The notes under the pieces: generated by a model | What the model was told of the DNA's origin: nothing | The model's input: only the letters and a program-made list of their open reading frames with translations | Databases searched by the model: none | Assembly: GCA_008632985.1 (NCBI GenBank) | Contig: QPGO01000136.1 | Location: forward strand, 62,001 to 126,000 | Origin: Psammoneis japonica | Taxonomy: Eukaryota | Direction: 5' to 3' | DNA length: 64,000 nucleotides | In this document: positions 10,141-63,419 of the stretch, piece by piece | Numbering within the stretch: the stretch's first letter is position 1 | How the letters are laid out: every line of letters begins with the position of its first letter | Translations under genes and position numbers: made by a program

Positions 10141-10194
10141 TACGTCTATTTGGTAAGAAGAAGTGTATTGTACTCGAGCTAGCTAGACGTTGAT

Positions 10195-10490
10195 GTGACA
10201 AGAGACAACAAACAACAAAACCAAGTGCACTGCCGCGGTGGGAGGTGGGCGACAGACGGACCATGATGCGCGTGTTTTAATAGTGATTCGTGATTCGGCA
10301 CATGTGTTTCAAACGACCCAAAGACGCACGAACCATTGCCACAGCACACGCACTCAGCATCCTTGCAACAAGCAACAGCACAATTGCAACACTCACACAC
10401 TTCATCCCTGCTGTTTTGCTGTTGGCACACCATGCAAATGAATCCCTTTTCACCTGTGTGCGCAACTCTTTGGTGTGTGCAGCAAGAAGG
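10195..10490 (+). pseudogene. Degenerate copy of the TMEM19 upstream region and first codons
   Basis: gtgattcggcacatgtgtttcaaa matches 21052 gtgattcggcatatgtgcttcaaa. MNPFSPVC here versus MDPFSPTC in the intact gene. Confidence 0.65.
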
Positions 10491-10759
10491 TCCTGGAGCA
10501 AAACAGCAGAGAGCCGAGAGAGGGGCGAGGAGGAGGAACGCAACCAGCCCCAGCAGGGCACAAAAGTCAGGGCCCTCATGCCCTGTCTCAGAGAAATGAC
10601 GCTTGGCAACCACAATCTGTGCCTGGGAAGAACCAATGTGATTTTTTCAAAGTTTTGTTTTTGACCAAATCAAAATGTTGTTTTTTCAAATTGTTGTCAT
10701 GGCGCTGCTCTCACTCTCATCCATGGTGCTCAAGCCAACAACAACCTGTCTGATTTGAT

Positions 10760-12590
10760 GATTTCCCCCCAGTGGCAGTGACCTGGACAACTTTGTCATG
10801 CCCTCCTTCCATCCACCATGTTGTTTTTGCCACGCTGAATGTTGCCATTCATGCCAAATGCAACCAAGAGTGTGGCTCACTTTTCCAAAAGGTGCCTCAA
10901 CACATGGAACAATTTGTCCAAAAGCTTCAATTCCAGTGCTGCATTCCACAGAATCCAGTTGCTGATTTCCACATTTTCAGAGTGCTCCTCATCTGTGAAA
11001 GCCATTTCCCCACATCTTCCAGAGCAGCAGCTCCCCTTTTGCAGGAGTCAACAAGTGCCAGAAAGGCTTGGGCCATTCATTGGCCTTGCAGCCATTTGGC
11101 AGTCACAGCTGCATTTTTGCCTTCCTCCTTTGACAGATTTCCAGCAAAGTCTTTGCCCCACATGCAGCAGTCTTGTCCCCCCCCCCCCCCCCAAAAAAAA
11201 GAGCCACTCTGATGCAGCCACACACCAAGCTCATCAAGAAGAAGTCACTGCCCATGTTCATTTGGAGAGCCCCGCGCAAATGGAGAGTGCTGTGCAGCTG
11301 AGGCAGCACATGCAAAGTCTGTTTAAATTTCATTGTCTTTTCTTTGTTCAATCTGGAGTGTCTGTGGAGGGCACGCCCAGTTGTGCCACACTTGATGACT
11401 GACATTGTGCAGTTTTGACAGAGACGCGTTCCAGCCCTAGGTGGGACTCCTTGTGACATTGGGCCCGTAGAATTCTACGTGCGAGCTCCGTAGTACGAGA
11501 ATTTAATTAATGGATATATTTATCTTCAACATCAAATAAACGGCCAAGTTTGTGGTACAATTATGCCTCTTACCACTCGACGTTTTTGCAACTTCGCCTG
11601 CCCTACGCGATTCTTAAGACATTGTAGAATCGCGCTGTAACAAAAAATGTCAAAAGTTGTTGGACGGATCGCTCAATAAGTGTACCGTAAAATGACACAA
11701 AATATCGAAAAAATCACGTAGAAATCTACGTGCGCGACATACGACGAGACTCAAAAAACTATCGATGTCACAGTTCAGTAGCACGAGGTCCCACCTAGAC
11801 CTGGAACGCGTCCAGAATCTTTTCATTCATCAACACCTCTCCAGCAAGTGCCAAGGCATTCATGGCAAATCCATCTGTTGTCTGTGAGACCATGATCTTC
11901 TCTTGGTTGGTCTTCACATGAAATCAAACATCAACACAATGGCTGTGGTCAATGTGCTCCAGCTTTGGAAACACAGCTTTCATCTCTTGCATCATGCTGC
12001 TCAAATCACATTTGTTTTCCATGAGAATGGCTGCACTGTTGATGCAACCCTGCAAATGCAGTGCCACAGTTGCACTGGCACTGCCCAACAATGGCAGCTT
12101 GCAAAGACTTTGACACACCAGCCAGCACATCATGGGTGGATTTGCTCTCTCCCGAACACTTCCACAGTTGGAATGTCTGGGATGGACCCGCATTTTTCTG
12201 CCCATCATCATGGTGCCAACAACTTGCTGCCAAGAGGGGAAGATGTGCCACTTGGATGAGTGTGCTTCCTCCCAATCCTGCAAAAGTGGTCTCACAATGA
12301 TGGAAAAGGCCATCTGCAGAGAAGTGTTGTTCCATCCACCACTGGCTCCTGTCATTTCTGTGCTGGTTGCAGATGCAAGTGGCAGATTTTGTGGATTTGA
12401 GCAACAGTTGCTCATGCTCAACTCCTGATGAGTGTGATCCAGAAATGTGCCACCTCCTGGGCCATTTGGCAATGAGGATCTGCTCCACCAGCAAACAAAA
12501 GATCGCCACTCATCAATCTGGGGCTTTGTCCCACTCATGAAAAAATTTGCAAGTGTGGTTTCATGATGAGGCAGCATGGCCCCACCCTTC
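10760..12590 (-). pseudogene. Hypermutated duplicate of the HET-like gene at 18757-20809
   Basis: Colinear with ~18940-20470, for example ctgcattccacagaatcca, gagtgtgcttcctcccaatcctgcaaaagtg and ctgatgagtgtgatccagaaatgtg. TA and CG are replaced by TG/CA. Confidence 0.9.
11423..11812. mobile_element. 390-bp MITE with ~25-bp TIRs and a 4-bp TSD (CAGA)
   Basis: Left end GACGCGTTCCAGccCTAGGTGGGAC and right end GTCCCACCTAGacCTGGAACGCGTC. CAGA lies at 11419-11422 and 11813-11816. The flanks rejoin to match the uninterrupted paralog at ~19680-19710. Confidence 0.9.
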
Positions 12591-13719
12591 TGTTTTCCTG
12601 CGGAACATCTTTTTTTGCTGGCAGCAATCCCAATGTTTGTGCACATGCACACAAATGAATGTGGTCCACAGCAATTGATGCAAATGCATTGTGCATTGAT
12701 TTGCATGCAACACATGAACAATTTGCACACACTGTGTCTGACAACCTTGAGAGGATGAAGGGCTCCTCATGTGCACTCACACATGCCTTCAAACATGAGT
12801 GTTTGACTTGCAAAATTTTGCATGGCTTGTGGAAACACAATGACAGTGGTGGCCATGAACACAATGTGCACCATCAACAGCCACAAAATTGCCACAACAC
12901 TGATGTGTTTTGATCGCACGCAATTTGCATCACGTGTGCATGTCTTTGCTGTGCATTGTGAAATCATTTGATCACAGAAAAAAAGCCAAAAAAAACACTC
13001 ACTTCTTTGCCCATTGCTTCTTAACCTCAAAAGTCAACAACTGGCCCATCACACTCTCACATGTTGACTCTCCCATGTGTCACACAGCTCTCAAGATGCA
13101 AGGTGCTGTTGGTTGTTGTGGCTCTTGAGTTGCTGATGCTGTCAAGAAAGCAGTGACCACAGAGTCACTGCAGTGTTGCTGACATGGTTCAGTGGCTTCC
13201 ATCTGCAGCATTTCTGCAGCGAGGTTGTGCTGAAGAAGCTGTGTCGTGCTTGTTGATTTGGCAAGTGCTGTGTCGCTTTGCTTGTCACAGCAGCATGCCC
13301 GCCATTCTCAGTGGTGGGGTTGGCAGCAAAAAAAAATTGTGGTTTGGCAAAAAATGTGAATGAGCTGAGTGTTGTTCTTTCTTCCCCATTCTTCAACTTG
13401 CCATCATTGTGTTGGACCCTCTCATTTGAGAAGCGGTCAAAATGGCCGCCCAGCTGCTCTCTGGAACACTGGCATTCTCTTGTCATCACAGCACCAATCA
13501 TCACCCCAAGAACCTTTTTTTCTGACGCAGAGTGCACCATCAAGCATGGTGTCAATGTTGCCATTGTGAAGGGCTCATCTTTCAGGAGCACACTGACAAG
13601 GTTGCTCAACTTGGCTCAGAGCCAGTCCATCTTGTGCTGCTGCCTGAGCTGTGCACATGTTGTTGATGCTCCCCTCTGTTTCTTCTCTTGTAAAAGTGAC
13701 AAACAGCAACTCTTGTGAC

Positions 13720-14210
13720 AACATTGAGCACATGAGATTAGAATGAGAACCTGATGCTGAGAAAAAAGGAAAATGAGAGAAGAATTTTTTATGCTGGAGA
13801 TCCGCAAGTTCAAAGTGCGTGGGGTGGCAGATGGACCAAATGACATCTGATTGTGGTTTGGCACATGTGCTTCAAAATGTCCAAAAGATGCTCTGTGTGC
13901 ATGAACAATCATGCATTAAGACAATTGGTTGATCTGTCCCTCAAGGTCCATGCCATCACCATCACAAGAACGCAACACCACAGGCTCTGGCAATGCAACC
14001 GCCTGCGCTGCCAACTGCCAATGCCCAATGCAAGACAAGACGCAATGCATGCTTTGCTGCTGTTTTGACTCTGCACACAATGGATCCCTTCTCACCAGCA
14101 TGTGTGGGATTGGGTGTGGCATGGGCCACCACCATGGTGCTGCATGGTGTCAAGCACAAATCCGTTTCCAACAGTGGCACGATTGCGGCCTGGATGGTGG
14201 GCTTTCTCAA
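13720..14210 (+). pseudogene. Hypermutated duplicate of the HET-TMEM19 intergenic region plus TMEM19 5' coding sequence (truncated)
   Basis: Matches ~20865-21380. MDPFSPACVGLGVAWATTMVLHGVKHKSVSNSGTIAAWMVGFL here versus MDPFSPTCIGLGVVCATTMVLRGVKRKSLSNSGAIAAWMVGFL in the intact gene. Confidence 0.92.
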
Positions 14211-14269
14211 CACTGCCACCAGATCTAGCACAGGTTGCAAGTGATGAAAGAGAAACTGAAAATTGGCAC

Positions 14270-15900
14270 AAACCAAGCCAACAAGGAGATCAAGATGGAT
14301 GAGATCATTCTTGACAATGGCTCCAGCAAAGATCAAGCTTGATCTGTCCATGAGTGCTGGAGCAGACCTGCTGCACAAAGATTGTGCCATGCCAGGATGG
14401 GGTGATGCAAAGCTTGCGTCAGAGAATGCTGCAGCAAGCATCCTCAATTTGAAGGATGTGAAGAGCAAGTGCTGCACTGCGTGCAACAACCAAGTGGTGG
14501 ATGAATTTTGACCGCTGGACAAGAAGTCTGGCAAGCACACCACAGTGTTTGCTTTTGCACTGAGCCAGCAATTCTTTGTGCCAGAGAACTCCTAGAAAAA
14601 GAGCTGCATGTGACCAACACACACATGTGGGTTTTCAAGACAATGGCCACATCACAAGAGGCATCAAAATGACTTTCATTTTGTGGGGAATGTGCAGAGA
14701 CAACCTGCATGATGCTGATTGGACTGCAGGAGTGGACAATGAAGAAACCAAAAACAAAAGTCACAACAAAAAAAGAACAAAAATGACCCAAAAGATCAAG
14801 ACTGCAAAGACAAGAAGACTCAGTTGAAAAGTGCAAAGAAGCAAACAAAGGTCCAGCCCCAATCACCAGCATGAGAACACTCAAATTGAGGACAAACATG
14901 AAAACAACAAAATGATGCAGAACAACTGGACAAGCACAGCAATGAATCAGAAGAAAAGAAGAAAAAATGGGCAGGTGAGAATCTGGAGGAACATGCACAA
15001 AAAGCACCTGAAAGAATGGCTGGAAGTGGCAAATCCTTCAGCACTGCAGGACACCTCCAGTTGAAAGAGAACAGAGAATGAGAGAAGAAAGTTCAACAAT
15101 CTGCAGCAGTGGAAGACACTGAAAAAAATGAGAATGAGCAGACAAGACTCAAGCACTGTCACCACTCACAAATGAATGCACACCCAATCCAGAGGATGAC
15201 ATTGAGTGCAATGCAGACACAACAACAGTGGTGGCACAATTCATGTGCAAGATTGCTGAACAACTTCAGTCAGGAAAGGGGGCTCATTTTGCAATGGAAA
15301 ACCAACAAGGAAATGGCAGGACAAGGACAATTCAGCCAGCCTGATGGCATCATCAGAAGGAGTGCCAATGATGGCCATTGTTGACACTGTGGAAGAGCAC
15401 CAACATGTGATGAGGTGCTGGAGCACCAAGCACATTCAGTCAGACCTTAATCCCAGAGCCCAAAAGGAGGGTGAAGACTGGATCATGATGAAGATTGCAG
15501 AGGAGGGCAGCTTGAACTCTGATGCATGTGCACAAAAAAGATCCCTGCAACCAGAGGCACACAGATGCCATGAACCACAGGTTCAGCCAGTCACAAGCCA
15601 CTGCTGCAGTGATTTGCACCTTCCTTGAGACATTTCCAGCCATGAGCAAAAGTGTGACATGCCACATGACACAATTAATCAGAGGTGACTGTGGGACCGC
15701 TGAGAAGAACACAAGAGATTCAATGAAATGACAGAGGCAGCAAAATTTAAATGCTGGCTCAACCATTCAATGGGCATGATGTCAGAGACAGTCTGGTGGC
15801 TTGACAGCATCAACCAGAGCAGGACCCTGATGGGAGATGACCCATTCCTCTGATGCAATGTCCCAGACTTGCACCAGCTGACACCATGTGGAGAAACCTG
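14270..15900 (+). mobile_element. Degenerate Ty1/copia (diatom CoDi-like) pol remnant: protease region and partial integrase
   Basis: IILDNGSS aspartic-protease motif. PGWG...AAASILNLKDVKSKCCTACNNQVVDEF resembles CoDi 'PG.G...AIANI..L.D....R.TYD....D.F' with Y/R->C changes. Later AEKNTR..K and MMSETVWWLDSI are integrase-like. No LTR recognised. Confidence 0.6.
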
Positions 15901-16992
15901 TGACGACTCAACCATTCCCAAAGAACATGCACAAAAAAAAACAAACCTGAATTTTAAGTGCTGTCACTCCTTTGCCAGCTGGGCCGGTGCCGGCTGACCC
16001 ACACTTCCAGCACACCATCAAGTGTGGCAAAAGAAAAAGAACATGTGCAGTGCAACAAGTGGAATGAAAGGCACCACTTGATGGGAAAAGTGCGTGCGAT
16101 GATCAGGGCATGAAGCCCTGATGTGTGCAAACATGTTTCTACCACCACGCCAATGCTGTCCATTCATGATGACCTGAAAGCACTGAATGAGATCAAGAGA
16201 CATGGAGTGGAGGCATGAAAAACCAAGGAATGTTGGCAAGCTGCTGGATGTCAACTGTGGAGCCACAGGCAGCTGTGTTGTCAATGGATTGGTGATGGCA
16301 GAAAGTGCCCAGAAAGTGGGGAAGTCACTGGATCAGCGGGCAACAAGCTGAAGTTGGCCCCAAATGAGAGTGCCATCAAGTGTGCCATCAAGTGTTTGTC
16401 AAGACCATGTTGATGGCTGGTTGTTGTCCTGCTTGTGGCATGGACACATTTGGGGTTTGTGGGCCTCTTGTGTGCATCAACCACAGCCACCTTCACAAAG
16501 ATGAGTGGTCCCATCACGGGCTCATTTGAGAGACTGATGGTGGCATTTGCAATGGGGAGAAGCTTGCATCTTTCTTCCACCATGATGCCAACAGGGAGAG
16601 TTGCCAGACCAGGTGGGCTTGTCAAAAGACAGAGTTCCTTGATTTGACTCTGGAGAAGATCAATGGTGGTTGGATCATGGACCTGATTGTTGGTCTGCGC
16701 ATTTGAGATCACAAGAGAGAGGGCTCATTGGCTGCACTTGTGTGGAGCATTTTGTGGAATGCACTCAAGACATTGCATGTTTGTTTGATGCCATGATCAG
16801 CTGCTCTGAGAAGGGACAGCATGCCAGCCTGCACATCTGTGATGCACAGGATGTTGATGTTGAAGCACAGGTGTTTCTGGCAACAAGAATGCAGTGGTTG
16901 TTCCTGAAGGAGAACCTTTCCCTGGTTGCCATTAATCTGGTGATGCCATTGATGCAAACAGCAGGAGTGTGTTGGAACACTTGGAACACAAG

Positions 16993-17706
16993 GATCAATG
17001 GGGTCAACAAGGGCCCACACCAGTTGACAAAAAGACATTTGACTTCTGACATGGCTTGCTTTGCAACTCATTGTTAGAAAAGTCACACCATCAAAATTCT
17101 CTCACCTTTGTTTTGTTCTTGCTCCTTGGAGTGAATCATTTGGTTTGCACAACTTGTCTTTCAGCATCAGCAGGCGCATGTCTTTTTTTTTATTTCACGA
17201 GCTCAAATTTGCACACAAGATTTTGGTCCACTTCAATCCCCATTGCATTGTGCTGGTCACAAGATTTTGTCCACTTCAATCCTCATTGTGTGATGTTGGT
17301 CACCGGCTCTTTCCTGGATGACATGAGAAGCAATTTTTGACAATGCTGGCCGGCACTCACCATCATCATCTCAAGAGTTGTTGGGCAGTGAGCAGGCTTT
17401 TGGTGGTGGTGCACACAAAACACACAACACATGGGAGCTTTCCAGTGCAAGAGCTGCAGCACTCACAGCCCTCATCTTTGCCACTCAGCTGTTGGTGCAC
17501 ACAGACAACAGGGTTGATCAATGGGATCAACAAGGACCCACATCAGCTGACAAAAAACATTTGACTTCTCTGATGTGGCTTGCTGCATGACTTGTTGTGC
17601 TGAGAAAAGCCACGCTGTTGTCATTCTCTCACTTGTGTTTTGTTCTCACTCTTTGGAGTGAGTCATTTGGTTTGCAGGATTTGTCTTTCATCATCAGCAG
17701 GTGCAC
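16993..17706 (+). repeat. Two diverged ~190-bp direct repeats (16993-17180 and 17516-17706)
   Basis: gatcaatggg.tcaacaagg.cccaca.cag.tgacaaaa..acatttgacttct ... ttggagtga.tcatttggtttgca occurs twice. Confidence 0.75.
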
Positions 17707-18756
17707 ATCACATCATCACTTTGGTGCCACAGGCAACCCACAGCCACTGCAGACTGCCAAGGCAAGTGTGACACGCAGCACAAGAAGCCCAAACTGACTC
17801 CTTTTTGGTGACATTGACTTGCTGGTTCAATGCTGTGCACATTTCTTGGCTCGGCATGCCCCCAGAGCAGGAGGGAGAGGTGCAGCCACACCAACAGTGA
17901 TGCACCAACAGAGCTTTTTTTGTCCTGCTGCATGAGGAAAAGATTGGCTTGCCCACACTTGCAACAAAAGAAACACATTCTGTGCCTGGCAGGAGCCAGC
18001 AAGACTTTTGTGCAGTTTTGATTGTTGGTCAAACACTCTGACACAACAGCATCAACAAATTGTGTGTTGATGCTTTTTTCCCAAGCAAATGCACATGTGT
18101 TGCACACAGTGAGAAACAAGGCTGAAGCAAAGCACAGCAGCAAACACAGCCAAAATTTTGTGTCTTTCAAACAGAGGAAAGCCATTGAGAACAGAGGATG
18201 ACAGGAAGAAAGAGGAAAGGGAAGGCAGGACATCTTAAAAACACATGGGACCAGGTGCATGCCAGCAGCAGCACCATGCTCTGTGTCTGTTGGCACCAGC
18301 GGCTCTCATTTTTAGGTTTTGTTTTGTGGAAAATGAGACCTTTTGTCGTCTGAGCTGAGCACTGCCACTGTTCTTGGCAAAATTGGGCAGTGGTGCCAAT
18401 GCACAGCACAATGCCATGCTCTAACATCTTGACAAGTCCAACAGTTGTGGCAGCTCTCTTGTCCAAGCATGTTGCTGAGAACTTGAGCAGGAGGCTGTGC
18501 ACCCCTTGAAAAGTGCATGGTTTCTCATGTGATGATCAGCCCTTGTGCTCAACATTCATTGGCACAACTGACACTTTCTGCACTGGAGAGAAATGCAAGG
18601 ATGCTCCACCATTCTCTCACAACATGAACACTGGTGCTGCTTCCATTCCCATTGTGGACCTGCTGCAATGTGATGATGACTGCTCTAATTTATTTCTGTG
18701 CATCAGGATCATCTCATGAGAGTCCAAGCTCTTCCAGCAACTTGTTCACTGTTTGT

Positions 18757-20809
18757 TCAGAAAGGAAACTGTCCTGAGTTCATCGATGATGTACACTGCA
18801 ATCGTTTCCCGCCAGGCATGACTTTTCGTGTTGGCCAAGTGTGACATTGCCTCAGTTCCCTGAGACCTTGTAATGCACGGTCCATGGCAGGCACAACATG
18901 ATTTGTCTTGGTGGAATGTTTGTCGCCTGTGACAGCAACCTGGACGACTTGAGCAACTCCATCATCGATTTGCCTGTGCCCTCCTTCCATCCAGAGCTTG
19001 GAGGCTGCAAGACGGAGCCTGTTCCAGATGTCCAAATCCACCGTCACGCTATTGCCTTTCAAACTTGCTAGCACCATGGAGAGCCACATATGAACGTCAT
19101 CATACATGCCAAACGCAACCAAGAGTCGCTCACCTTTCCGGAAGGTGTCCCAATACACGGAAAGATTTGTCCAAAAGCTCCCATTCTGACAAACTGCATT
19201 CCACAGAATCCAACTAATGACTTCTGCATTGTCAGAGTGTTTTTCGTCCGTGAAAGCCATTTCCATGTCCTCCAGAACATCAGCTCCCCTTTTGCGAGGG
19301 TCGACAAGCGCCACAAAGGCTTGTGCCATTCGTCGGCCTCGTAGCCATTCGGCAGTCGCAATTGCATTTTTGCCTTCCTCTTCCAACAGTTTTCCAGCAA
19401 AGTCTTGGTCCAACATGCAGCAGTCCTTCCCTCCCCAAAGAGCCACTCTGATACACACCAAGCTCGTCGAAAATAAGTTTTGTCCGTGTTCATCGAGAGA
19501 GTCCCATGAAGAGAGTGCTGCAACTGAGGAAGTACACGTAGAGTCTGTCGAAATCTCATCAATTCCTCTTCTGTTCGATCTGGCGGTGTCTGTGGAAGGC
19601 ACGCATAATCGTACCACAGCCAAATACGTTGACAAATTTTGTCGGCAATTTTCCGTCTCCATCCTAACAGTGCTTGCTGGCTAACATTATATGGTTTCGA
19701 TGGAATCTTTTCATCCATCAATACCTCTCCAGCAAGTGCCAAAATATTCATAGTCAATCTACCTGTCATTTTTGAGACCATAATCTTCTCTTGATTGGTC
19801 TTCAGATGGAATCGAACATCGATAATATGATCGACGCACTCCAGTTTCGGAAAGATAGCTTTCATCTCTCGCATCGCTTTATTCAAATCAAATTTGTTTT
19901 CCATGAGAACGATTGCACTATCGATGCAATCCTGCAACAGTTGCCACAAACAGGCATTCATACTAAGCCAATCTCCCGGTAATGCCGGTTGCATCGGTGC
20001 TGCCCAACGATGGCTTATAAACACTTTAACGCCATCACTGGCAGAATTGCTCCCGAACACTTCCGCAATTGGAATATCTGGGACGGTCCCATACTTTTTC
20101 GGTCCATCGTGGCGCCAACGAATCGCCACCGAAAGGGGAAGATACGTCACGCGGAGTGTGCTTCCTCCCAATCCTGCAAAAGTGAACTCGTGGTGGAAAA
20201 GGCGATCTGCGGAAGCATCGTCCGTCCATCATTAGCTGTCATTTCTACGTTGGTTGTAGATGCGAATGGCGGACTTTGTGGATTTGAATAAAAATCATCC
20301 ATGTTCAATTCCTGATGAGTGTGATCCAGAAATGTGACGGGACATTTCGCAACGAGGACGTGTTCCACCAGCAAATACAAAATCGCCGCTCGTCGATCTG
20401 GATCTTCACCGTACTCGCCGTACCATTCAAAAACTTCACGAAATATGGTTTCATAACGAGGCAAGGTAAAATTGCTTTCCTCTTCCTCAACGTCGCCTCC
20501 TTTGTCGTCTTCTCCACTTTTGTCGCGAACACCAGCTCGAAGAACAGTGGTACTGTTGCTATTCCTCCTCTCCTTAAATTTGTCGCTGTGTTGGATCCAT
20601 TCGTTTAAGAAATTGGTACAAATCGAAATCACCGTCCAATTCTCCGGAAGATCGGCATCATCATCACTACACCAATCATCATCATAAGAACCTTCTGTTT
20701 CTCTGATGCGGAAGATGTCATCAAACAAGGCGTCAACATCACCATCATGAAAGGCATCTTTCGGGAGTGTATTGACAAGATTGTTCAACTCGGTTCGGAG
20801 CCAATCCAT
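18757..20809 (-). CDS. HET-domain-like protein, split across ORFs by frameshift/intron
   Basis: Motifs FISHRW, WLWYDYACLPQ and YFRRAWCVSE in ORF 19068-20171. Acidic N-terminal ORF at 20147-20809. The C-terminal end is uncertain. Confidence 0.62.
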
Positions 20810-21251
20810 CGTATACTAAACTACGCATTATGATGACCGTTGTTCTGAGTCAAAGAGACAAACAATAACAACAATGAGAGCACGAGATCAGAATGAGAAA
20901 CTGATGATGTGCTGGGAAATAAAGGAGATGAAAGAAGAATCATACAGTTATGATCAGAATTTTGGAATTTTGTAATTTTGTAATTTTGTGCGTGGGAGAA
21001 TCCGTTTTTTTTTCCCAAGCGGTCGACAGACGATCCAAATGAAGTCTGATTGTGATTCGGCATATGTGCTTCAAAAGATCCAAAGAAACGCTATATTTAT
21101 CAATATTAATACATGAATATTGATAATTCGATATCGCACCTTGTGCTTCCAAAAAAAAAAAAAGAAAGGATACTTAGACTACTCTTATTATTAGTAAGAG
21201 TAAGACGCAACATATTTTTATCTCTGTTGCTGCTGTTCGACTCTGTACACA

Positions 21252-22133
21252 ATGGATCCCTTCTCACCAACATGTATAGGATTGGGTGTGGTGTGTGCCA
21301 CCACCATGGTGTTGCGTGGTGTCAAGCGCAAATCCCTTTCCAACAGCGGCGCGATTGCCGCCTGGATGGTGGGCTTTCTCATTGTGTCTTGTGGCTTGCG
21401 AGGATTTGTCTTGGTGGCTTTTTATTTGGTCGGAACCAAGGCTACCAAATACCACAAGCTTGAAAAACAAAAAATAGATGCGTCGGCCTTGGAAGGATCG
21501 ATACGAGACGCTCATCAAGTCTTGGCGAGTAGTATTTTGGCTGTCGCGTGCAGTCTGTTGCACGCGTGGTTGTGTGGTGAAGAAAAGCCAATCGATTTTG
21601 ATAAACACCCGGTAGCTTCGTCTTTGAGCTGTGCTGTACTGTCGCATCACGCCACTTGCTTGGCGGATACTCTGGCATCAGAAATGGGTATATTGTCAAA
21701 GCAGCAACCCGTATTGGTGACGAAGCCTTGGAAACACGTGCCGCCGGGAACCAACGGGGGTGTTACAGTCAGTGGTACTCTGTGGAGTGCGTTTGGCGGT
21801 GCACTCATGGCAATCTGTACCATATTTCTGGATTTTATATCTGGTTTGCATCCTTTGCAACCAACGCCCGTGATCCTGTTTGGTACGCTTTGTGGCCTGT
21901 TGGGCTCGCTGTTGGATTCCGTTATCGGTGCAACCTTGCAAGCGTCGTATTATGATCCTGATACGAAATTGGCGTACCAAGCCGAGGACATCAACCACAA
22001 GCTTCCGCTCTCTGCCAAGCACATTTCTGGAGTCAACGTTTTAACAAACGCACAAGTCAATCTCGTCAGTGTTGGCCTTACCATTGTCCTCAGCGGTTGG
22101 GTGCTTGGTCCATTTTTGTTTTCCTTCTTTTAG
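21252..22133 (+). CDS. TMEM19: TMEM19 / DUF92 integral membrane protein
   Basis: Multi-TM protein with R...QVLA, ADTLASEMG, VPPGTNGGVT..GT, GSLLDS.IGATLQ and LTN.QVN. Confidence 0.92.
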   Translation: MDPFSPTCIGLGVVCATTMVLRGVKRKSLSNSGAIAAWMVGFLIVSCGLRGFVLVAFYLVGTKATKYHKLEKQKIDASALEGSIRDAHQVLASSILAVACSLLHAWLCGEEKPIDFDKHPVASSLSCAVLSHHATCLADTLASEMGILSKQQPVLVTKPWKHVPPGTNGGVTVSGTLWSAFGGALMAICTIFLDFISGLHPLQPTPVILFGTLCGLLGSLLDSVIGATLQASYYDPDTKLAYQAEDINHKLPLSAKHISGVNVLTNAQVNLVSVGLTIVLSGWVLGPFLFSFF

Positions 22134-22662: not shown

Positions 22663-22841
22663 NNNNNNNNNNNNNNNNNNNNNNNNNNNNNNNNNNNNNN
22701 NNNNNNNNNNNNNNNNNNNNNNNNNNNNNNNNNNNNNNNNNNNNNNNNNNNNNNNNNNNNNNNNNNNNNNNNNNNNNNNNNNNNNNNNNNNNNNNNNNNN
22801 NNNNNNNNNNNNNNNNNNNNNNNNNNNNNNNNNNNNNNNNN
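22663..22841. other. Assembly gap (N run)
   Basis: Run of n characters. Confidence 0.99.
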
Positions 22842-24300
22842 NTTTTTCTTTCACACCCTAACTCAACATTTTGGAAGCATTGCAAATCACATCAGGAGCA
22901 GGGCATTTAGCAAGCAACAACTGTGTGCTCCTTGGAGCCAACTTGCCACACCTCTCAAAACAAGACTTTGCTTCCTCACCAGCATGTTTCAGCAGAAAAA
23001 ATGGGCTGGCTCTTTTCTGTGGCTTGCACGGCTCTGCTCCCAAAAACAGCTGCGCTGCTCTTTCTGGCTCTGTGCAGCCTCCAACAGCCTCCTTGTTAAA
23101 AAGGTTTTAACCCCTCTTTAACTCCTCATGAAAAAATGACAACCACTCACCCACAACTGCTGACCCCACCTTTTTTCTCCTCTCCACAAGGGCCCCTTTG
23201 TTTGAGACTCCGTTGTTCTGCCCCCTGCCCTGGAACCTCAAAGACCCTGACAGAGTTGATGCTCACCCTGCACTTGGCACAATCTGAGAAAAAGGCACCC
23301 AGTTGAAGTGGACAGCTGAGGTCACACTTTCCCACCTTGGCCACCACTTGACCAAAGCTTCTGGACAGACAGCAGGAGCATGTGGCCAGCAGCTCTTCCT
23401 CTGCAGCCTCCTGCTGCTCTTTCCTGGTTGTTGTCAGTGGCCCAACCAAGTGATGCAAACTTGGCAAATGCCAGCCATGCACTGCTGCATTTGCACAACC
23501 AACAGGCGGCCAGCTGCAGCTTCGAACCCCCAGAAATGAAAGCCACGCAACTTGCTCAAAACTGCCCCCCCAAGTCAGACCCTGGAAAATGCCATGACAA
23601 AAGCCCATTTGTTGGGTGTGACAGTCTCATCTGCAAGCCCCAGAAGCAAAGAAAAAAACAACATTTTGAAACATTGGCCACTGCGCTGTGCTGAAAACCT
23701 TGCTTGCCCCCCTGACTTTTTTGCCCCACCACCAGCAGCAGCAGTGCATGCCACAAAAAAGCAAGCATTTTGACACAGTCCTGTCAAGAGAAAAAAGGCC
23801 ATGTGTGACACACAGCTGGCAACTCCAGTTGAGCCGGCATCTCCGAGCACCCCCAAGTTCACAAACACAAAAGACAGACGTCACCTGCGTGAGAAAAGAT
23901 TTGCAGCCCATTGGATTTTCTTTAAATCCAACTTCCAAAACTGAAAAAATCTGCCACAACCCTTTGTCACATTGTCCTCAAAATGGTTCTGAATGTGCCT
24001 TTGCAAGCTGGGCCTTGCCTGGCCAGGCTCGAGGTCGCCACACTTTTCTTGCAGTCTCACCCAGCAGGCTGTCACTGCATGCTGCATGCCTTGTCATGTC
24101 ACCCTGACACATGCCCAATTCAAACTTTCCTTGGCCTTTCAGTTGACACTTTGAGAAATGACACTCTTTTCAGCACCGCTGCTCTTTTTCGATTCTGCCA
24201 AACCAGCGAAAAGAAAAGGTTTTAATCTGATGTTGCTGCGGTCACCTGTGACAAAAACAAATGCCAGCAATCATTCTGAATCTGAAAGCCTTGCATCAAA
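22842..24300. other. TpA/CpG-depleted hypermutated block 2
   Basis: Same dinucleotide signature. Surviving TAs are mostly TTAA/TTAG/CTAA. Origin not recognised. Confidence 0.8.
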
Positions 24301-39519: not shown

Positions 39520-42500
39520 TCGATGTGGTCGACTTCTTTTTCCAAAAAGTCTCTGATGAGTGATCCTTTTTTTGTGAAGGAGAGCACCAAATCGTTGGCT
39601 CTCGAAATCCTTTTTGGAAGAAAGCAGACAAAGGCTGGTCTTTGAAAGAAAAAGAACACAGCAGTGTGCAACCATGCTGAGTTGCCAGAGTCGCGCCTGA
39701 CACTGACTAAAAGGCGGTGATCGCATCAAGGCAGGCTGGTGAGAAGATGTTTTGACCAAAAAATCCTGTCATGATGAGGCTTGGTGCACAGATTCCTCTC
39801 AAGTGCCAGATGTTTTGAAAACAACGGCAGTTTTGTTTTGGGCATTGGACATGGGCTGTTTTGGAGCTGCTTTCGCTCAATCGCTCAGCTGCCAAAGGGA
39901 ATCACCAGCACTGATGTGTGGACTGTGTGGCATCATTGTCACAACTGGGGTGCCTTTGTGATGGGAAATTGGGGATTTGACTGGATTGAAGATGAGCCAA
40001 TTTTTTTCAATCTTTGCCAGAGCATCAGAGCGCGCATTGTGGTGGTTTCCACTTTCCTTTGTAAATTTTTTAATGTGCGTTGTCAAAATTGTTAACAACC
40101 AGAATTTAAAAAATGCCAGCAAAGGTGCTCAACAAAATGCAGCTGTTTTGTGCATTTCATCTGATGTCTCATCAACGTTTCTTGCACAAGCTTCAATCAA
40201 ATGCGTGCAATGTTCTGTTCAATGGGGGTCGAAATCCACATTTTGTGGTGCATGGTTTGGTTTCCTTTTGACTGCAATCAATTTGAACTTGGTTTTAACT
40301 TTGTCCTCCTCACTCACGTGCATGTGTCTTTGCATGTGTGCAGTCTGTCACTGCACATGCAGTGCTCAACGCACGCACGTGACCTTCATTTTTCTTCATG
40401 TTTCCCAGATTTGCGCAGCCCGTTGGTCTGCGGCATTTTCAGCATGTTTTTTACATGCGCATTTTTCCACACACTTCACAACAGCACACCCTCTCCCCAA
40501 AATTTGAAAAACAAGAGCATGTGCTGTTGTGATTCACATGGATCCTGCATGTGGTTGCAAATCTGCAAATCCACAACAACCGGCCATGGCGGTGAAAGAC
40601 TTTGCCCCACTGGCCAATGACAGCAGCTCAACGCATGTGAAGCCTGCTGTCCTTCTGGTTGGTTAAGATGGATTTTGACTGGGGCACAGCTTGAGTTTCA
40701 TGATTGCGAGTGTGCTGTCACAAATCTGCCGCATCCAGAATGCTGAGCTGCTGGCGTGTTGTTTTGTGCACGCACGTCACAAATTCACTCCCATGTTGCA
40801 CTCTTGCAACATGTTCTGCTCTTTTTGGTGATGAGTGAGGTGGAACAGAGCAGCAGCAGTTCAAACAATGGAGCAGCAGCTCCTGCTACAAACTCGCCCA
40901 CTCCAGAATCAGCGGCGCCTGATTCACCGGTGAGTCTGTGTTGCTGTTCCTGTTGGCAGTGTCAGCTCATCTGCACTGTGCTCTCACAATGCATTCTGCA
41001 CTTTTTTTGGCAATGAACAAAGTGGCTGCCAGCAGTGGCACTTCAAGAAAGCAAGCTGCAACTGCTGCTGCAAACTCCAGGGTGTTGTCTCCTTCAGCAT
41101 CATTCAGTTTAAATGCAGACAACAAAATGGAATGTTCATGGTGCAGTGCAAATGATTTTAATTTACAAGTTTTGCAGGGATGGAGGGTGGGCACTCTCAT
41201 GGGGAAAACATGTCCCTGTTTCACAGCAAAAACAGGGGGTCTGATCCCACAGCATAAAAATGTTTGTCTGTCACAGTTGACATGTCATTGCCAGCTGCAC
41301 AACTGTCAAGGTTTGAAACAACAGAATTTTGTGCTGCAACAGATTAAAAAATTGCTGTGAGAAAGGTGGTCTGGATCAGCGCTGCAATGCACACTCTGAC
41401 AAGAGGGCTCAACTTCTTGCTGGCATTTCTTCATGTCAGTTGTTGTTGCCAGCATGTCAGCACTCTCAATTTGTGGAGATGCAGGGTTTCTGTCAGCTTT
41501 GTCTCTGAGGTTGGCCCACTGGGTGTGGGGCTCCAAAGATCTTTGAGAGGAGCTTGTCCAAGTTTTTCTTTTGGAAAGAACACAGGAGGGCACTCTTTCC
41601 AGAGTTGGCATCAGAAGCCAAGCTCACTCATCTCAAAATGGCACTTTTTTGCTTGTTTGTGCACATGATCATGGCCTGCCTTCTTAGAGAAGCAAACAGA
41701 AATCTGTTGAACTCTGAGCTCCACAGAGGCAACAAAGTGGTGCTCTCAATTGTCAGCGCAGCAACGTCATCTTTCAAGAGAGAATGAACATGTTTGAAGA
41801 TGCCATGGCCATTTGCAGACATGCTTTACACTGGCCACCAAGTGTGTAGATTCTGCTTAAAAAGTCCTCACAAAAAGCCCAGACATGTGGAGAGAGACAG
41901 CTTCTGCAAAAAAAGAGGAGCAGCAGGCAGCTTTTTGTTTGGCGCTGAGTTTCTGCATGCTGTTGTTGAGCACTCCACTCAACTGTGCCACTCTCCATGT
42001 GGCTTTGCACAGAAATGCCAGAAAAACATCTTGCAGCAGATCTCTCATCCAAAGAAAAGCTCATTTTGCTGCAAAACAAGGCCTCCAAATCAAAGCACCT
42101 TTTGATTGCTGTGATGTCTGCTGCAGCATGTCACAGATTGTTGTCCTGCTGAGTTTCTGCACATGTGCCACAACTGAACATGCTGCTCAAACATGACACC
42201 TTGTGGCTTCCCAAAGCCAGCAACTCAACTGGTCCCATGAGAACCCGCATTTTGCACCAGTGAAAGCAACCCCCGGGTTGACGTGCGAACGTGGAGCTGC
42301 GACCTGTCCTTGTTTTTTTTACACGAAGGCCGAAGGGTCACGCACACCAAGCAAAAACTGCAACTTTCACCCCCCCCCCCAATCGAACTGTCAGAATGTG
42401 CAGTGCAGCAGGGAGTCGGTTGAAAGTGCATCGGCGGAAGTCGCTCGCACGCTCGCATGCAATGCCAGATCGCATGTAAAACAATCAGGTGGGATGGACA

Positions 42501-45470
42501 TTTCTGGTCGTGTGATGTCCGTGTTGTCGATCCGTTGTGAACTCACTTGTTGCCCTTCGTGTTTTGTGTCTACACAGGCACGAACACACAAGATTAAAAA
42601 AACTCAACGGACGTTGAAAATCTGTTGAAACTTGGAAGTTTCAACAAAAAACTGTTGAAACTTGGAAGTTTCAACAAAAAAATGTTGAAACTTTTTTCGA
42701 GTTGTTGAAACTTCAAAGTTTCAACAGATGTTTTGTTGAAAGTTTGAGTTTCAACAAAAACACTTTCAACAAAAATTCACAAAAACTGTTGAAACTTTCA
42801 GACTCTACATTGCATGACGTCATCCACCAGTGGCGGCTACACGCGAAATGGGAAAAGTGCAGCGGCGAGCCAAATTCAAGCTGACACTGCGCGATGACGC
42901 AAACCGCCTCGAAGCAGTGGCGGTGTTTCTCAACGCCATGGCGAAACATCCTGAGAGACAAGCAAAGTTCTTGATGTGAGCATTGAAAGTCACTTGACGA
43001 GACCAAGCCCGGCTCTCAGCTTCTGCTGTGGGTCCCGACATGCCGAGCTTTAGCGGTCCTTGTGGCGCCAACTGCGACAGCGTCTTTGGCATTTTCCACG
43101 GAGTTTCAGAGCGGCATCAGATTCGCAGAAATGATTTTTTGCACCAGCGCAGAAATCCACCTGTGTTTCTGGCACATGAAATTCATGCCGACATCAACCT
43201 TTTTGCGATCTTTCGACAATGGCGGCGTTCTCGGTTCGCAGCTGTTGCGCCACTGATGCCGCGTCAATTGTCGCAAAACCTGTGGCATGTCACTCATCAC
43301 CCTCTTCTCAGTTCATTTTTTCCCTCTGACATTGCATCTTCTTCGGCCACAATCTCGAATTTCGACAGCATCAACACAAGGTAAAAATCCAAAGCGGGTG
43401 CCAGTTGTTTGTTGGTTTTTGACCCCGCGCTTTTATTTTGAACGCCCACCTGAAACAGCGTTTTGCCTTCTCTTTCACTTGATCCCCCAGGGTGTCATTC
43501 TTTTGGGCTGCAGTCGTCTGGGGAGCCATTCGCTGAGGCCATGAGCCATGAAGCTTCTGTTGAAATCTTTCTGTTGGGTGGAGATCACTGAACACGGTGA
43601 CTGCCCTGTTGGGTGGACATTCCGACTCATTTCAAACATTGCCAAAGGAATGAAACAAGTCACCCAGTTTCTGTGTTTCCTGTTGGAGACTCAAATGAGC
43701 AAGCTGCACTCACAAACACTGCGGTCTGCTTCGAAGGTAAGATCAAAACATCCGACTCTGCTTGTTTGTCTCGTGGAATGAGATGTCTTCTTTAGACAGC
43801 TCGAATTTAGAGCCAACAGAAAAATGTAAAAAACACTTTAGAGTGCCCCATTGACATCACAACAGTTTCATTTTAGAGACAGGAAGGAGTGCCAACCATC
43901 AATGGCAGCTCAGCAGCATCACAAAGCCATCGGAACGGGCTCGGTTTCAGAGCTGAGATCTGCGTTGATCCACTTCGTAAAGAGCAAAAAACAGCACCAC
44001 AACTCATGGACTCATGGATGGTTGATTTACATCAGAAGCCTTTTTCACAACAGTTGCAGGAAAGGCACAAGACAATGCGATCATCGTCAATCCAGGGTGA
44101 GTTCACCAATTTTTGTGATCGAGTGTTCTCTTTGTGATGTCACGCACCAGAAAATGTCGTGAAGTCCACACAGAAAACGGAACACCAATTTGAAGCTGCT
44201 GCTTTGTGGCCAAAGTGAGCTCACCATTTGAAGCACATCTAAGAAACGGTCACTCCAACAAGCAAAGTGAAGGGCTGTGGAAGGTGCTCCAAATGCCACA
44301 GCAGTTTTGATGTTGTGGCAACATCTTGAAACTTGCAGCTCTGTGTCATTAAGTGGGATTCCGCAAAATCTGCGTGTCACGCACAAAAGCAAGGAATTTT
44401 AAAAATGTTCGAGGTTGATCGAGCTCCGAAATGATTGGTTTGGATTTTAGTCGCACAAGTCGAAGCCAATGCCACTCGCGCGTAGAGCTGAAACACCGTG
44501 TTTCTCGCGGTGTTTCAGAGCGGCATTGGCTTCGTAGAAATGATTTTTTGTGCCAGCGCAGAAATGTGCGCATGTTTCTTGTGCATGAAATTCATGCCGA
44601 CATCAACCTTTTTGCGATCTTTTGACAATGGAGGAGTTCTCGGTTCGCAGCTGTTGCGCCACTGATGCCACGTCAATTGTCGCAAAACCTGTGGCACATC
44701 ACTCGTCACCCTCTTCTCAGTTCATTTTTTCCTCTGACATTGCATCTTCTTTGGTCGCAATCTTGAATTTCGATGGCATCAACACAAGGTAAAAATCCAA
44801 AGCAGGTGTGAGTTGTTTGTTGGTTTTTAACCCCGCACTTTTGTTTTAAATGCCCACCTGAACAGCATTTTGCCTTCTCTTTCACTTGATCCCCCAGGGT
44901 GTCATTGTTTTGAGCTGCAGTCGTCCGGGGAGCCATTCGCTGATCGCTGAGGCCATGAGCCATGAAGCTTCTGTTGAAATCTTTCTGTTGGGTGGAGATC
45001 ACTGAACACGGTGTGACTGCCCTGTTGGGTGGACACTCCGACTCATTTCAAACATTGCCAAAGGAATGAAACAAGTCGCCCAGTTTCCGCATTTTGAACA
45101 AGCAAGCTGCACTCGCCAACACTGCGGTCTACTTCGAAGGTGAGATCAAAACATCCGACTCCACTTGTTTGTCTCGTGGAATGAGATGTCTTCTTTAGAC
45201 AGCTCGAATTTAGAGCCAACAGAAAAATGCAAAAAACACATTGGAGCGCCCCGTTGACATCACAATGGTTTTGTTTTAGAGATGGGAAGGAGCGCCAACC
45301 ATCAATGGCAGCTCAGCAGCATTGAAGCCATCGGAGCGCACTCGGTTTCAGAGCTGAGATCTGCGTGAATCCATCATTTCGTAAAAGAGCACAAAACAGC
45401 ACCGCAACTCATGGACTCATGGGTGATTGATTTGCATCAGAAGCCTTTTTCACAACAGTCACTGGAAAGG
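39520..45470. other. TpA-depleted (CpG partly depleted) hypermutated block 3
   Basis: TA is rare throughout. CG is rare at 40.5-42.2 kb but retained at 42.2-45.5 kb. The signature fades over 45.5-45.9 kb. Confidence 0.85.
42612..42800 (+). repeat. Array of GTTGAAAC/GTTTCAAC palindromic units (left)
   Basis: 22-bp hairpin units separated by short A/T runs. Confidence 0.9.
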
Positions 45471-45905: not shown

Positions 45906-46019
45906 TTCGTTCTACCTCCCGTCAATTCGTCTGCTCTACCTCCTGTCAATTCGTCTGAATTGACGGTGACGTCATGAAGTTTCAGACATTATGGTGATGA
46001 CATCGTGGTGACGTCAGAC

Positions 46020-61639: not shown

Positions 61640-63150
61640 TGATGTCAACTCGCCGTCGCCCCAACCCTTTTGACTTCAAGTCAATTGCACTTGAAACTGT
61701 CTCCCTTGTTGGAATGTTTGGACAAGATGAGCTCCTTGGGGACAGAGCTTCTCTTACGGATTTGAGAGCAATTGGTGAAAAGGCCGCCTTTTTGCCCAGA
61801 ACGGTGTTTGTTTGGACCGAAATGCAGACTGTGTTTTCGGAATTGTTGAAAAAAGATGCTGGCAAAAAGCGCGCACTCATTGGCAGCCCCGGAGTTGGAA
61901 AATCCACGGCATTTTTCTTGGCAGCCCTGCACATTGCAGCAGTGAAAAGAAAACAGGTTGTCTGCATTCGCTGGGCTGCCGAAGAGCAACCCCCACAGTT
62001 TTCCTGATCTGCCCAGGACAACATGATGGTGCTGTTTGCATGGGATCACTCTCCTTCACGAGGTTGCGCTTCTCCCTCAAGGACATTGCGTGGGCCGCAC
62101 TGGATTTCGGCTGTGAAACAAACAATGAAAGCCAGCAGCACTTCCTCGATGGGCCCAAGGAAGTGCAAGCAAAAGAACTCGTCAATCTTGACTGCCATTT
62201 GTGCATGTCAGGAGGATGCAGTGCTCTGTCCAATGCTGAATGGATGATCACCCACATTGCCGTCATGAGTGGATCGACTGAGTGTGATCTCATGGCAGCC
62301 TCAGCTAATGTGAAGAATGTCAATTCGAACGAAGCAAAGAAAGTGTGCGCTGAGTGTGGAGGGCGAATGCGTCTGGCACTTGATCATTCAAATGATGAGG
62401 CGGCAATGATTTCTTGGGCTGATGGCATTGTTGCGGATCTGTCAGAGAGTGCATGTGCTTTGGCAATGATGGAGTCAGAGTCTCGAACATCTTTTGACAG
62501 CAAAGACAGATTGCGGACCATGTTCAGGAGAAGCAGTGGGCGACCTCTTCAACTCGTGGATTCACAGCATTTGCTTTCAAAGCTTCGAGACCGCTTGACT
62601 TTTTGTGACTTGCAAAAAGCTTGTGGAGTTGCCGAGGCACTGGATTCTCGTACGATGATGGGAGTCCTTTTTGAGGAAATCATGCACAACTGGTTTCAAC
62701 GAGTCAAGCCGACCCCGGCATCCAGGGTTTTGCATTCCCCTGGGGGGGAGACAGGAAAAGCTGGTGCCGCAGACCTGTCCAAAGAGCTGGCCTGCTGGAG
62801 TCCAAGTGTGCCAAACTTTGCCAATGTTGGTGCTGCGTTTGTGGACAAAGCAACCGTTCTGCATTTTTTTTGTGCCCAGTGTGCCACAAGTGACTCTCAC
62901 GAGTTCAACGCCTTGACGTTTGACACGGATTTCATCCTCGAACTGAAAAAGAGCTTCGTCAAAGGATTCCAAGAGATTGTGGTGTGTTTCACAGTTCCAT
63001 CTGGGGTGATCTTTGACGTTGAGGCACATGACGCTTTTGAGTGTGACAACGACTCAACAACCTGTCGGTTTGAGGTTGTTCATTTGAAATTCAGCAATGA
63101 CAACAAAATTGGTGCATTGGCCAGCGCCTTTCCCTTCTTGTCACAGGAAA
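61640..63150 (+). pseudogene. Hypermutated Crinkler/RHS-type P-loop NTPase + REase-like effector gene
   Basis: Walker A LIGSPGVGKS, FLDG, GG..R.A and G.LFEE.MH. C-terminal CWSPSVPNFANVGAAFV...Q.....H.F resembles CR-REase 'YW.P..PNF..ID'. Frameshift near 62000. No Tyr in the 471-aa ORF. Confidence 0.65.
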
Positions 63151-63419
63151 AATTCTTGGGTTGCAGAGGTGCGCACGCTGCAGGCCGTGATTGTGAATGT
63201 GCCCACAGATCTGATTGCACCAAATGAATGTGATGATGAAGAACAGATGGCAGCTGTCCGACGCACTGACAGAAAGGCGATGGAAGGATGCAGGCTGTGC
63301 TGGACTGGGGACTGAGTGAGACATGGGACTGTCTTCCAATGCCCTCCCTCGAGATGGAGCCAGTTGATTCACAATGATGTGAAAAAACTTGCAAGATCTT
63401 GCAAACCTTGGAAGAAAGT

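Follow-up and report, generated by a model that had tools for sequence, protein, structure and literature searches.

Regional loss of TpA in a Psammoneis japonica contig follows a graded flanking-base rule consistent with context-dependent hypermutation

RESULTS

Five blocks of the window are depleted of TA

The window analyzed here, 64,000 nucleotides of Psammoneis japonica DNA (assembly GCA_008632985.1, contig QPGO01000136.1, positions 62,001 to 126,000 of the forward strand), contains five blocks of 1-7 kb from which the dinucleotide TA has nearly disappeared. We set the block limits from the positions of every TA and CG, which gave blocks covering 20,041 bp with borders sharp to within tens of bases; the start of block D, initially placed at 39062, was later trimmed to 39709. 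Per-kb dinucleotide ratios (observed/expected, o/e) for TA were 0.00-0.10 in the blocks, compared to about 0.4-0.85 in the background, and TG/CA o/e reached 1.6-2.35 in 12-19 kb. The blocks and the elements to which they are compared below, a nearby copy termed the parent, an insertion resembling a miniature inverted-repeat transposable element (MITE), and an open reading frame (ORF) termed the ghost ORF, are as follows (strand given where assigned):

10282..11323: block A, no TA in 1042 bp, CG-poor
11423..11812: MITE-like insertion of 390 bp that splits blocks A and B; not hypermutated DNA
11797..18790: block B, 7 kb with 20 TAs, 15 of them YTAR; includes 12900-18720
19101..21381: parent copy; TA and CG at normal levels; carries intact ORFs and the beginning of a DUF92 gene
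22909..24222: block C, 4 TAs, all TTAA; directly after an N gap at 22663-22842
39709..45130: block D, TA-depleted, 43 TAs (22 YTAR, no RTAY, 14 TTAA)
59379..64000: block E, TA-depleted throughout, up to the end of the window; CG-poor only in 59445-61270
61779..63224, plus strand: ghost ORF of 482 codons without Tyr, a hypermutated pseudogene of a P-loop NTPase family

CG was also nearly absent from blocks A, B and C, from 40930-42245 (the only CG-poor part of block D) and from 59445-61270. In 42246-45130 and 61270-64000, CG was normal despite the loss of TA, indicating that TA loss and CG loss are two separable processes.

The blocks are mutated copies of ordinary sequence

Self-comparison showed that block sequence from 10846 to 14209 is collinear with the non-block parent at 19101-21381, with 71-90% identity. 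The right part of block A (10846-11390) aligned to 19101-19618 at 75.6% identity (blastn), and the left part of block B, to 14209, is collinear with 19703-21381. None of the 38 parental TA sites was kept in the block: 19 read CA, 14 TG and 5 something else. Only 4 of the 76 parental CG sites were kept (35 had become CA and 29 TG), and CA itself was retained at 123 of 145 sites. The 240 transitions from parent to block were spread over A>G (62), T>C (62), C>T (63) and G>A (53), compared to 60 transversions, and the indels were not multiples of three. The TG and CA outcomes at parental TAs were interleaved along the DNA (14 TG and 19 CA, in 16 runs vs. 17.1 expected), from which we conclude that both strands were hit.

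A second pair of copies lies in block D, where a 1.4-kb tandem duplication (43099-44502 and 44508-45907, 89.6% identity) has its left copy and part of its right copy inside the block. The two copies differ at 24 sites by TA/TG or TA/CA. Among TAs kept in both copies, 6 of 8 were YTAR, compared to 6 of 24 among those kept in one copy only.

The ghost ORF in block E had seven homologs with 44-59% identity. At 11 columns where the homologs conserve Tyr, it carries Cys seven times, His three times, Ile once and Tyr never; its Cys content is 5.8%, vs. 1.6-2.1% in the homologs, and it lacks the Walker-A segment. The family is an uncharacterized one of P-loop NTPases that gave only sub-threshold matches to nSTAND, and its features offer a lead toward Crinkler/RHS-like proteins. 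Searches for the family yielded 134 pattern matches in viral_contigs and 336 in metagenome_contigs, none of which was confirmed. Since a change of TA to TG or CA makes no TAA, TAG or new TGA and erases existing TAA and TAG, a dead gene subject to such changes stays open. Together, the parent comparison and the ghost ORF show that the blocks are mutated ordinary sequence rather than sequence selected to lack TA.

Pfam searches of 150 of the 152 stop-to-stop block ORFs (at least 70 amino acids) returned five sub-threshold matches only (E 0.004-0.009), which we rejected, and no family matched a six-frame translation of 14210-18790 in which X replaced the stops; no viral or transposon domain was detected in either set. 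A tblastx comparison of the window with itself revealed no further ancient block copies.

Several additional observations concern these copies. The stretch 14054-14209 matches 21227-21381, at the start of the DUF92 gene, at 89.7% identity, compared to 71-77% for the remaining copy; later gene conversion or a younger layer of duplication is possible. To the left of block A, at 10102-10167, a second contig of the public run compared with the blocks below (depth 38 of 70) differs from the window at 8 positions in 65 bp, among them three TA>TG (10105, 10142 and 10167) and one CG>CA (10144). This contig may be an allele or copy with a longer block, in which case the process acted after the two diverged. 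In block D, copies of about 140 bp at 42617-42760 and 46020-46185 flank the tandem duplication and match in both direct and inverted orientation at 72-86% identity; the 3.5-kb unit around the duplication may be a mobile element. TA density in the right-hand tandem copy rises again after about 45130. The last 81 bp of block E (63920-64000) are 82.7% identical to non-block sequence 6 kb upstream (57739-57819), which suggests that this block also holds a copy of neighboring sequence that continues past the end of the window. ORFs of 187-268 codons were also present within blocks at 10839-11402 (+), 11924-12730 (-) and 17694-18296 (-). These are most likely open only through the erasure of TAA and TAG, and gene callers would probably report them.

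The 3' neighbor of the adenine governs TA loss

An earlier note on this DNA, referred to here as the original prediction, had claimed that TAs remaining in 12900-18720 lie mostly in YTAR contexts. All nine TAs that it quoted as examples were found where it placed them, and the interval contains 20 TAs, of which 15 are YTAR (8 of these TTAA), 4 YTAY, 1 RTAR and none RTAY. YTAR accounted for only 266 of 1677 TAs outside the blocks (Fisher P = 1e-8). The same bias was evident across all five blocks, where the 93 TAs comprise 52 YTAR, 22 YTAY, 18 RTAR and 1 RTAY, compared to 273, 495, 393 and 530, respectively, of 1691 outside (P = 4e-17). The near extinction of GTA/TAC and ATA/TAT, also claimed, was borne out: the strongest blocks hold 2 and 4 of these trinucleotides, respectively, vs. 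991 and 954 outside. The corresponding counts were 11 vs. 701 for CTA/TAG and 39 vs. 724 for TAA/TTA.

The YTAR contexts nevertheless differed among themselves. Block density relative to the outside was as follows:

TTAA: 0.79
TTAG: 0.35
CTAA: 0.32
CTAG: 0.13
the four RTAY classes: 0-0.016

TTAA made up the largest share of block TAs (29 of 93), with 36.5 expected in unmutated DNA, and is thus almost undepleted, while only 4 CTAG were observed vs. 30.5 expected. Because CTAG is depleted while TTAA persists, YTAR is not one homogeneous class. The base at +2 had an effect as well: TAAA survived best (57 vs. 243 outside), compared to TAAT (15 vs. 228). TACG was not preferentially lost, making up 7 of the 27 surviving TAC strand contexts vs. 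201 of 992 outside (P = 0.47).

The original prediction had proposed per-context mutation rates from repeat alignment as a check, and these agreed with it: TAY had changed in 27 of 49 cases vs. 7 of 26 for TAR (P = 0.03). YTAY became TG eight times and CA once, and RTAR became CA 15 times and TG eight times. Where the context was asymmetric, the change fell on the A followed by a pyrimidine 23 times and on the other A 9 times (P = 0.02); for 30 of 42 changes, a hierarchy of 3' neighbors of T≥C>G≫A gave the correct strand (P = 0.008). A mirror model, with each strand's A governed by the base 5' of the T, is ruled out by this result. Three independent lines of evidence, namely survivor contexts, context rates in two alignments and the identity of the changed base, support the proposed 5'-TAY (A->G) motif, with the amendment that the effect of the 3' neighbor is graded: TAG is intermediate, and TAA alone is nearly immune.

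Adenines outside TA showed the same preferences. Among non-TA adenines in the parent alignment, 65 of 361 with a 3' pyrimidine had changed vs. 24 of 375 with a 3' purine (P = 1e-6). With strands folded, A>G rates by 5' base were 0.45 for T, 0.18 for A, 0.10 for G and 0.08 for C, and by 3' base 0.23 for C, 0.22 for T, 0.09 for G and 0.07 for A.

These rates bear on which base is attacked. If the T rather than the A were the target of a thymine-modifying or thymine-excising activity, for example by hydroxylation to 5-hydroxymethyluracil with subsequent mispairing or error-prone repair, T would become C at 5'-V-T-A, and its 5' neighbor would rank A≥G>C≫T. That pattern is formally identical to the observed one read on the other strand. 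The non-TA component, however, fits A>G naturally, favoring 5' bases in the order T>A>G~C and a pyrimidine on the 3' side; the sole experimental precedent, described under Discussion, was read by its authors, in the text available of their preprint, as adenine deamination, itself unproven; and we know of no T-directed activity with TA specificity. We consider an attack on T unlikely. Adenine deamination is favored on the strength of that precedent and of the non-TA changes, which can be read as A>G under the same neighbor preferences.

The neighbor preferences and the distribution of changes over both strands also bear on RNA editing. ADARs prefer the 5' neighbor in the order U>A>C>G, favor a 3' G in the case of ADAR2, and edit the transcribed strand of double-stranded RNA. 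ADAR-like editing of transcripts, with the edited copies then reverse-transcribed and inserted back into the genome, would give a 5' order like the T>A>G~C of the window. The 3' order of the window is T/C>G>A, not the G of ADAR2. Changes on both strands are interleaved within a few bases, blocks A and left B form an in-place collinear copy of several genes on both strands together with intergenic DNA, and no reverse-transcriptase domain was found among the block ORFs searched (150 of 152) or in 14210-18790 read in six frames. An upstream U is likewise given as favored by ADARs in the available text of a preprint on Bigelowiella natans (10.64898/2026.01.13.699255). The route through edited RNA is largely refuted by the strand pattern, and we regard it as highly improbable.

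A two-strand model accounts for the surviving TAs

Uniform survival across NTAN contexts, which had been named beforehand as the outcome at odds with a context rule, was rejected (likelihood ratio test [LRT] chi2 132, 3 degrees of freedom [df], P = 2e-28). A first-order Markov expectation within the blocks gave shares of 0.33 for YTAR, 0.18 for RTAY and 0.11 for TTAA, from which the observed 52, 1 and 29 of 92 depart with P values of 6e-6, 4e-7 and 1e-7, respectively. If the block TAs had been newly made from block TG and CA, the expected shares would be 0.23, 0.25 and 0.07, and the departures correspond to P values of 3e-12, 1e-10 and 6e-12.

We then modeled the survival of each N1-TA-N4 as exp(-(k[N4] + k[complement of N1])), so that the 3' neighbor of each A sets its loss rate and the two strands act together. 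Fitted to all 16 NTAN classes, k was 0.10 for A, 0.91 for G, 1.73 for C and 2.60 for T, with good agreement (Pearson X2 6.3 on 12 df). For TTAA, 29 were observed and 29.7 fitted, with 36.5 expected unmutated; for ATAT, none was observed and 0.4 fitted, with 64.7 expected unmutated. A specific protection of TTAA was considered and dropped, as the independent two-strand model already fits (X2 6.3, 12 df). Fits to subsets of the data were as follows:

Blocks A+B+C: k(A) 0.19, k(G) 1.22, k(C) 3.35, k(T) 2.97
Block D: k(A) -0.15, k(G) 0.63, k(C) 1.12, k(T) 2.58
Block E: k(A) 0.41, k(G) 0.95, k(C) 1.88, k(T) 2.08
Automatic segmentation: k(A) 0.30, k(G) 1.42, k(C) 2.20, k(T) 2.67
Interval 12900-18720: k(A) 0.13, k(G) 0.92, k(C) 3.05, k(T) 2.65
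Trimmed block D: k(A) -0.22, k(G) 0.91, k(C) 1.12, k(T) 3.37

The per-strand order T-A-[T≥C>G≫A] recurs in every subset, and TAA is almost immune. An equilibrium model, in which the creation of TA from TG and CA is divided by its destruction, yielded relative destruction rates of 1 for T, 0.27 for C, 0.15 for G and 0.03 for A (LRT 88, P = 7e-19), and the two models agree on the order of rates. Background transitions at about 7-10% of TG and CA would by themselves have yielded far more than the 20 TAs of block B, so removal must have kept acting.

These analyses also address whether any context-specific process is needed at all, since an excess of YTAR could in principle arise from composition, newly formed TAs, selection or base-calling artefacts. 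Two block TAs are demonstrably new, and within blocks Y precedes T in 58% and R follows A in 57% of cases, which lifts the expected YTAR share to 0.33. The Markov and new-TA nulls were nevertheless rejected (P = 6e-6 to 6e-12), and the test of which base changed is independent of composition. The frameshifting indels, the lost Walker-A segment and the replacement of Tyr by Cys or His indicate that the blocks are not under selection. As for artefacts, exact contigs from a public run, at a word depth of 32-54, reproduce the block with 0 differences over stretches of up to 2467 bp. An origin without a context-specific process is barely credible on these grounds.

CpG loss has its own context dependence

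CG-poor sub-blocks were delimited at 10350-11272, 11810-18783, 22909-24176, 40930-42245 and 59445-61270, and retain 78 CGs in 12.3 kb (12307 bp). Loss constants depended on the 5' base (1.86 for T, 1.34 for A, 0.87 for C and 0.45 for G; LRT 41, P = 6e-9), and the best-surviving CG context was GCGC. CpG was removed from part of the blocks by a second, separable process of C>T change, which favors 5' bases in the order T>A>C>G and is most simply explained by decay of methylated CpG. The widespread presence in diatoms of genes for DNMT4, a relative of RID, the enzyme of fungal repeat-induced point mutation (RIP), has been described (PMC9998398, available text).

Hypermutation of repeats at TpCpG in Pucciniomycotina (Horns et al. 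2012, PMC3318451), as far as the available text of that report describes it, resembles the CpG loss of the window in its dependence on the 5' base, with TCG lost most. It differs in that the fungal preference is strictly TpCpG, whereas that of the window is graded (T>A>C>G), and in that CpG loss in the window acts beside a second process and has not occurred in some of the stretches depleted of TA.

Copy number and the choice of target

We compared contigs of the public run with 10000-22600 by word depth, which was about 32-54 in single-copy parts. Depth over 14210-18000 was 90-1500, indicating that this part of block B belongs to a multi-copy family. The MITE-like element at 11423-11812 reached depths of about 1.4e5 and 5.9e4 in its two bins. 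It carries 25-nt terminal inverted repeats that are 92% complementary, is missing from the parental copy, and has normal TA and CG content. It was either inserted after hypermutation of the block had ended or not targeted; since it is unmutated, repetition alone is insufficient for targeting.

Two further observations were made on this element. It is possibly flanked by CAGA on both sides. Among the differences listed between its copies, the three best-supported A>G variants (11522, 11557 and 11761) each change the A of a TA that precedes T or C.

The involvement of duplicated DNA raises the question of whether biased repair or gene conversion could have produced the blocks, with T:G or A:C mispairs at TA steps resolved toward G:C in a neighbor-dependent manner. 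Very-short-patch repair depletes CTAG in Escherichia coli, the products in the window are always TG or CA, and duplicated copies could form heteroduplexes. Such repair would, however, require a source of mispairs that operates at TA and within blocks only. The copies differ in a single direction, the parent at a distance of 5-8 kb being unmutated, and the hypermutated region of nucleocytoplasmic large DNA virus (NCLDV) origin in B. natans is single-copy in the available text on it. We judge biased repair to be very unlikely.

Other features of the window

Outside the blocks, the long ORFs include proteins with Pfam matches to FAST_1 plus RAP, a proteasome subunit, eIF2A, MORN, zf-MYND and DUF92. 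The top match to the eIF2A protein had 62% identity, and its nearest named relatives, at ~50% identity, are from the pennate diatoms Cylindrotheca, Fragilaria, Nitzschia and Seminavis. Judging from its best protein matches, the window is treated here as part of an intron-poor, diatom-like genome. Rfam and tRNA scans of the whole window gave no matches.

The FAST_1 plus RAP protein (19-2325, plus strand, 768 amino acids) contains internal DNA repeats with an offset of 111 bp (37 codons), as expected of a putative heptatricopeptide-repeat organellar RNA-binding protein. A stretch of 689 bp at 35487-36175 combines normal CG with at most one TA per 300 bp and overlaps ORFs that appear intact; a mild or partial block is one possible reading and chance another.

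DISCUSSION

The observation behind the original prediction is confirmed and its interpretation is partly supported: the motif holds in a refined form, and the proposed TadA-like DNA deaminase is hypothetical. The blocks record TA transition hypermutation that struck both strands of defined regions under a graded 3' rule and a strong requirement for a 5' T. We are confident that context-dependent hypermutation of DNA took place. As an account of the whole, region-restricted, context-dependent TpA hypermutation by adenine deamination is the best explanation and probably the right one, and for adenine deamination as the chemistry, which we infer, the case is evenly balanced.

The process would have run as follows. 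A degenerate gene copy, a multi-copy family and a pseudogene would each have gone through many rounds of TpA transition hypermutation restricted to their regions. The A of a T-A step would change to G on either strand, turning TA into TG or, via the other strand, into CA. The base 3' of the A would mainly set the rate (T≥C>G≫A), and the rate of TA loss would be the sum of the two strand rates, so that RTAY, which is TAY on both strands, becomes extinct, YTAY and RTAR become rare, and TTAA, which is TAA on both strands, stays almost untouched. TAs newly arising from TG or CA would be erased by the same 3'-neighbor rule. The most likely chemistry would be enzymatic deamination of DNA adenine to inosine, which is read as G. 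The graded 3' effect and the protection afforded by A at +2 resemble the flipping of a poorly stacked adenine more than a read-out of bases, and under flipping, A-tract junctions such as TTTAAA would be expected to resist. Affected genes would persist as open ghost ORFs in which Tyr is replaced by Cys or His.

The only related work located in our literature search, which found nothing on diatoms and did not cover most subscription journals, was a preprint on B. natans (Mettrop et al., bioRxiv 2026, 10.64898/2026.01.13.699255), which we consider here as far as its available text goes. Of the 302 de novo mutations it reports, 231 mapped to two viral regions integrated in the genome. A>G or T>C changes accounted for 20 of 20 virophage-region mutations and for 210 of 211 in the NCLDV region, and each of these 230 was at TpA. 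The process ran at ~1000 times the background rate, 124 clusters poor in TpA and rich in CpA and TpG were found, and an ADAT2-like adenine deaminase was proposed, which is unproven. That text contains no flanking-base rule and no mention of CpG or diatoms.

Both systems change A>G or T>C at TpA to give TpG and CpA in discrete regions with sharp borders, and the affected genes in B. natans, like those in the window, lose recognizable annotation. They differ in several respects. The lineage is a diatom here and a chlorarachniophyte there; depletion in the window is deeper (TA o/e 0.0-0.1, vs. 0.45 in the NCLDV region of B. natans); and the targets in B. natans are foreign (viral or transposon) DNA, while those seen in the window are a host-gene copy, a multi-copy family and a P-loop NTPase pseudogene, with no viral or transposon domain detected in the ORFs and frames searched. 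CpG loss in part of the blocks is found in the window only, as compared with the preprint text. The B. natans mutations are exclusive to TpA, whereas the window also shows weaker A>G change at non-TA adenines (65 of 361 with a 3' pyrimidine) and at CpG (72 of 76 lost). Some of these non-TA changes may represent ordinary divergence over a much longer time. Relative to that text, the window thus differs in lineage, degree, targets, CpG loss, the off-TA component and the flanking rule.

Two better-known systems invite comparison. Ascomycete RIP converts CpA to TpA, thereby creating TA and stop codons, makes C:G to T:A changes only, and mutates both copies of a duplication. The window resembles RIP in having region-wide transitions in duplicated or repeated DNA, a dinucleotide target and a tell-tale dinucleotide skew. 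Unlike RIP, it has lost TA and stop codons, and its four transitions are about equal. The process is not ascomycete RIP, given that it removes TA instead of producing it and leaves the second copy intact. TadA naturally acts on U-A-C-G in tRNA. With TadA/ADAT2 and TadA-derived base editors the window shares a strong 5' T preference and acceptance of C at +1. Unlike TadA, however, it shows T at +1 to be at least as good as C and no extra loss with G at +2, and the substrate would be chromosomal DNA over kilobases. Judged from base contexts, the window matches a TadA-like signature at -1 and departs from it at +1 and +2.

A number of points weigh against the explanation favored here. The simple view of the remaining TAs as survivors is incomplete, since at least two were newly created: TTAA at 11324 from parental TCGA and TTAG at 13739 from parental TCAG. 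The oldest block has also lost parental YTAR sites (TTTAAC>TTTGAC and ATTAGC>ACTGGC), so that protection is relative and not absolute. The equilibrium model fits less well than the two-strand model (X2 22 on 12 df) and is weak for block E alone (P = 0.08). Survivors in block D are in part not independent, some of them sitting in short local repeats (TTTAGA occurs four times), and the aligned data are small (38 parental TAs and 32 in block D). Among public runs, the locus was present in one DNA run and in no listed RNA run; the DNA run is probably from the same sample as the window, so that its read-level support is not independent. The 22 long ORFs scanned in the window gave no Pfam match to a deaminase family, and A>G cannot be distinguished from T>C on the complementary strand by sequence alone. 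Finally, the explanation does not account for the choice of target, as the neighboring parental copy is untouched and a repeat of roughly at least 1000 copies lies unmutated inside a block.

TpA-specific regional hypermutation has been reported once so far, in the 2026 preprint on a chlorarachniophyte, and the window presents it near completion in a diatom-like genome. The quantitative flanking-base rule, with its ~30-fold range and its sparing of TTAA, is the first that we could find for such a process. It makes a prediction that the de novo mutations already published could falsify and supplies a panel of substrates for candidate deaminases, and in annotating protist genomes it separates this signature from methyl-CpG decay and from RIP. 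It also carries a warning for annotation, because long ORFs that are free of Tyr and rich in Cys and His stay open and will be called by gene finders.

More tentatively, diatoms, and perhaps SAR (stramenopile, alveolate and Rhizaria) protists generally, given the TpA hypermutation of a chlorarachniophyte, may possess a natural, region-targeted DNA adenine deaminase system, a possibility that we take seriously without expecting it to hold. Such a system might be an "inverse RIP": together with CpG decay, it would erase duplicated or invading DNA that has been silenced, hitting 5'-T-A-B-3' on both strands and sparing TTAA. If so, the flanking rule would serve as a fingerprint for finding its enzyme, and a native deaminase of chromosomal DNA adenine would be new enzymology of direct interest for base editing.

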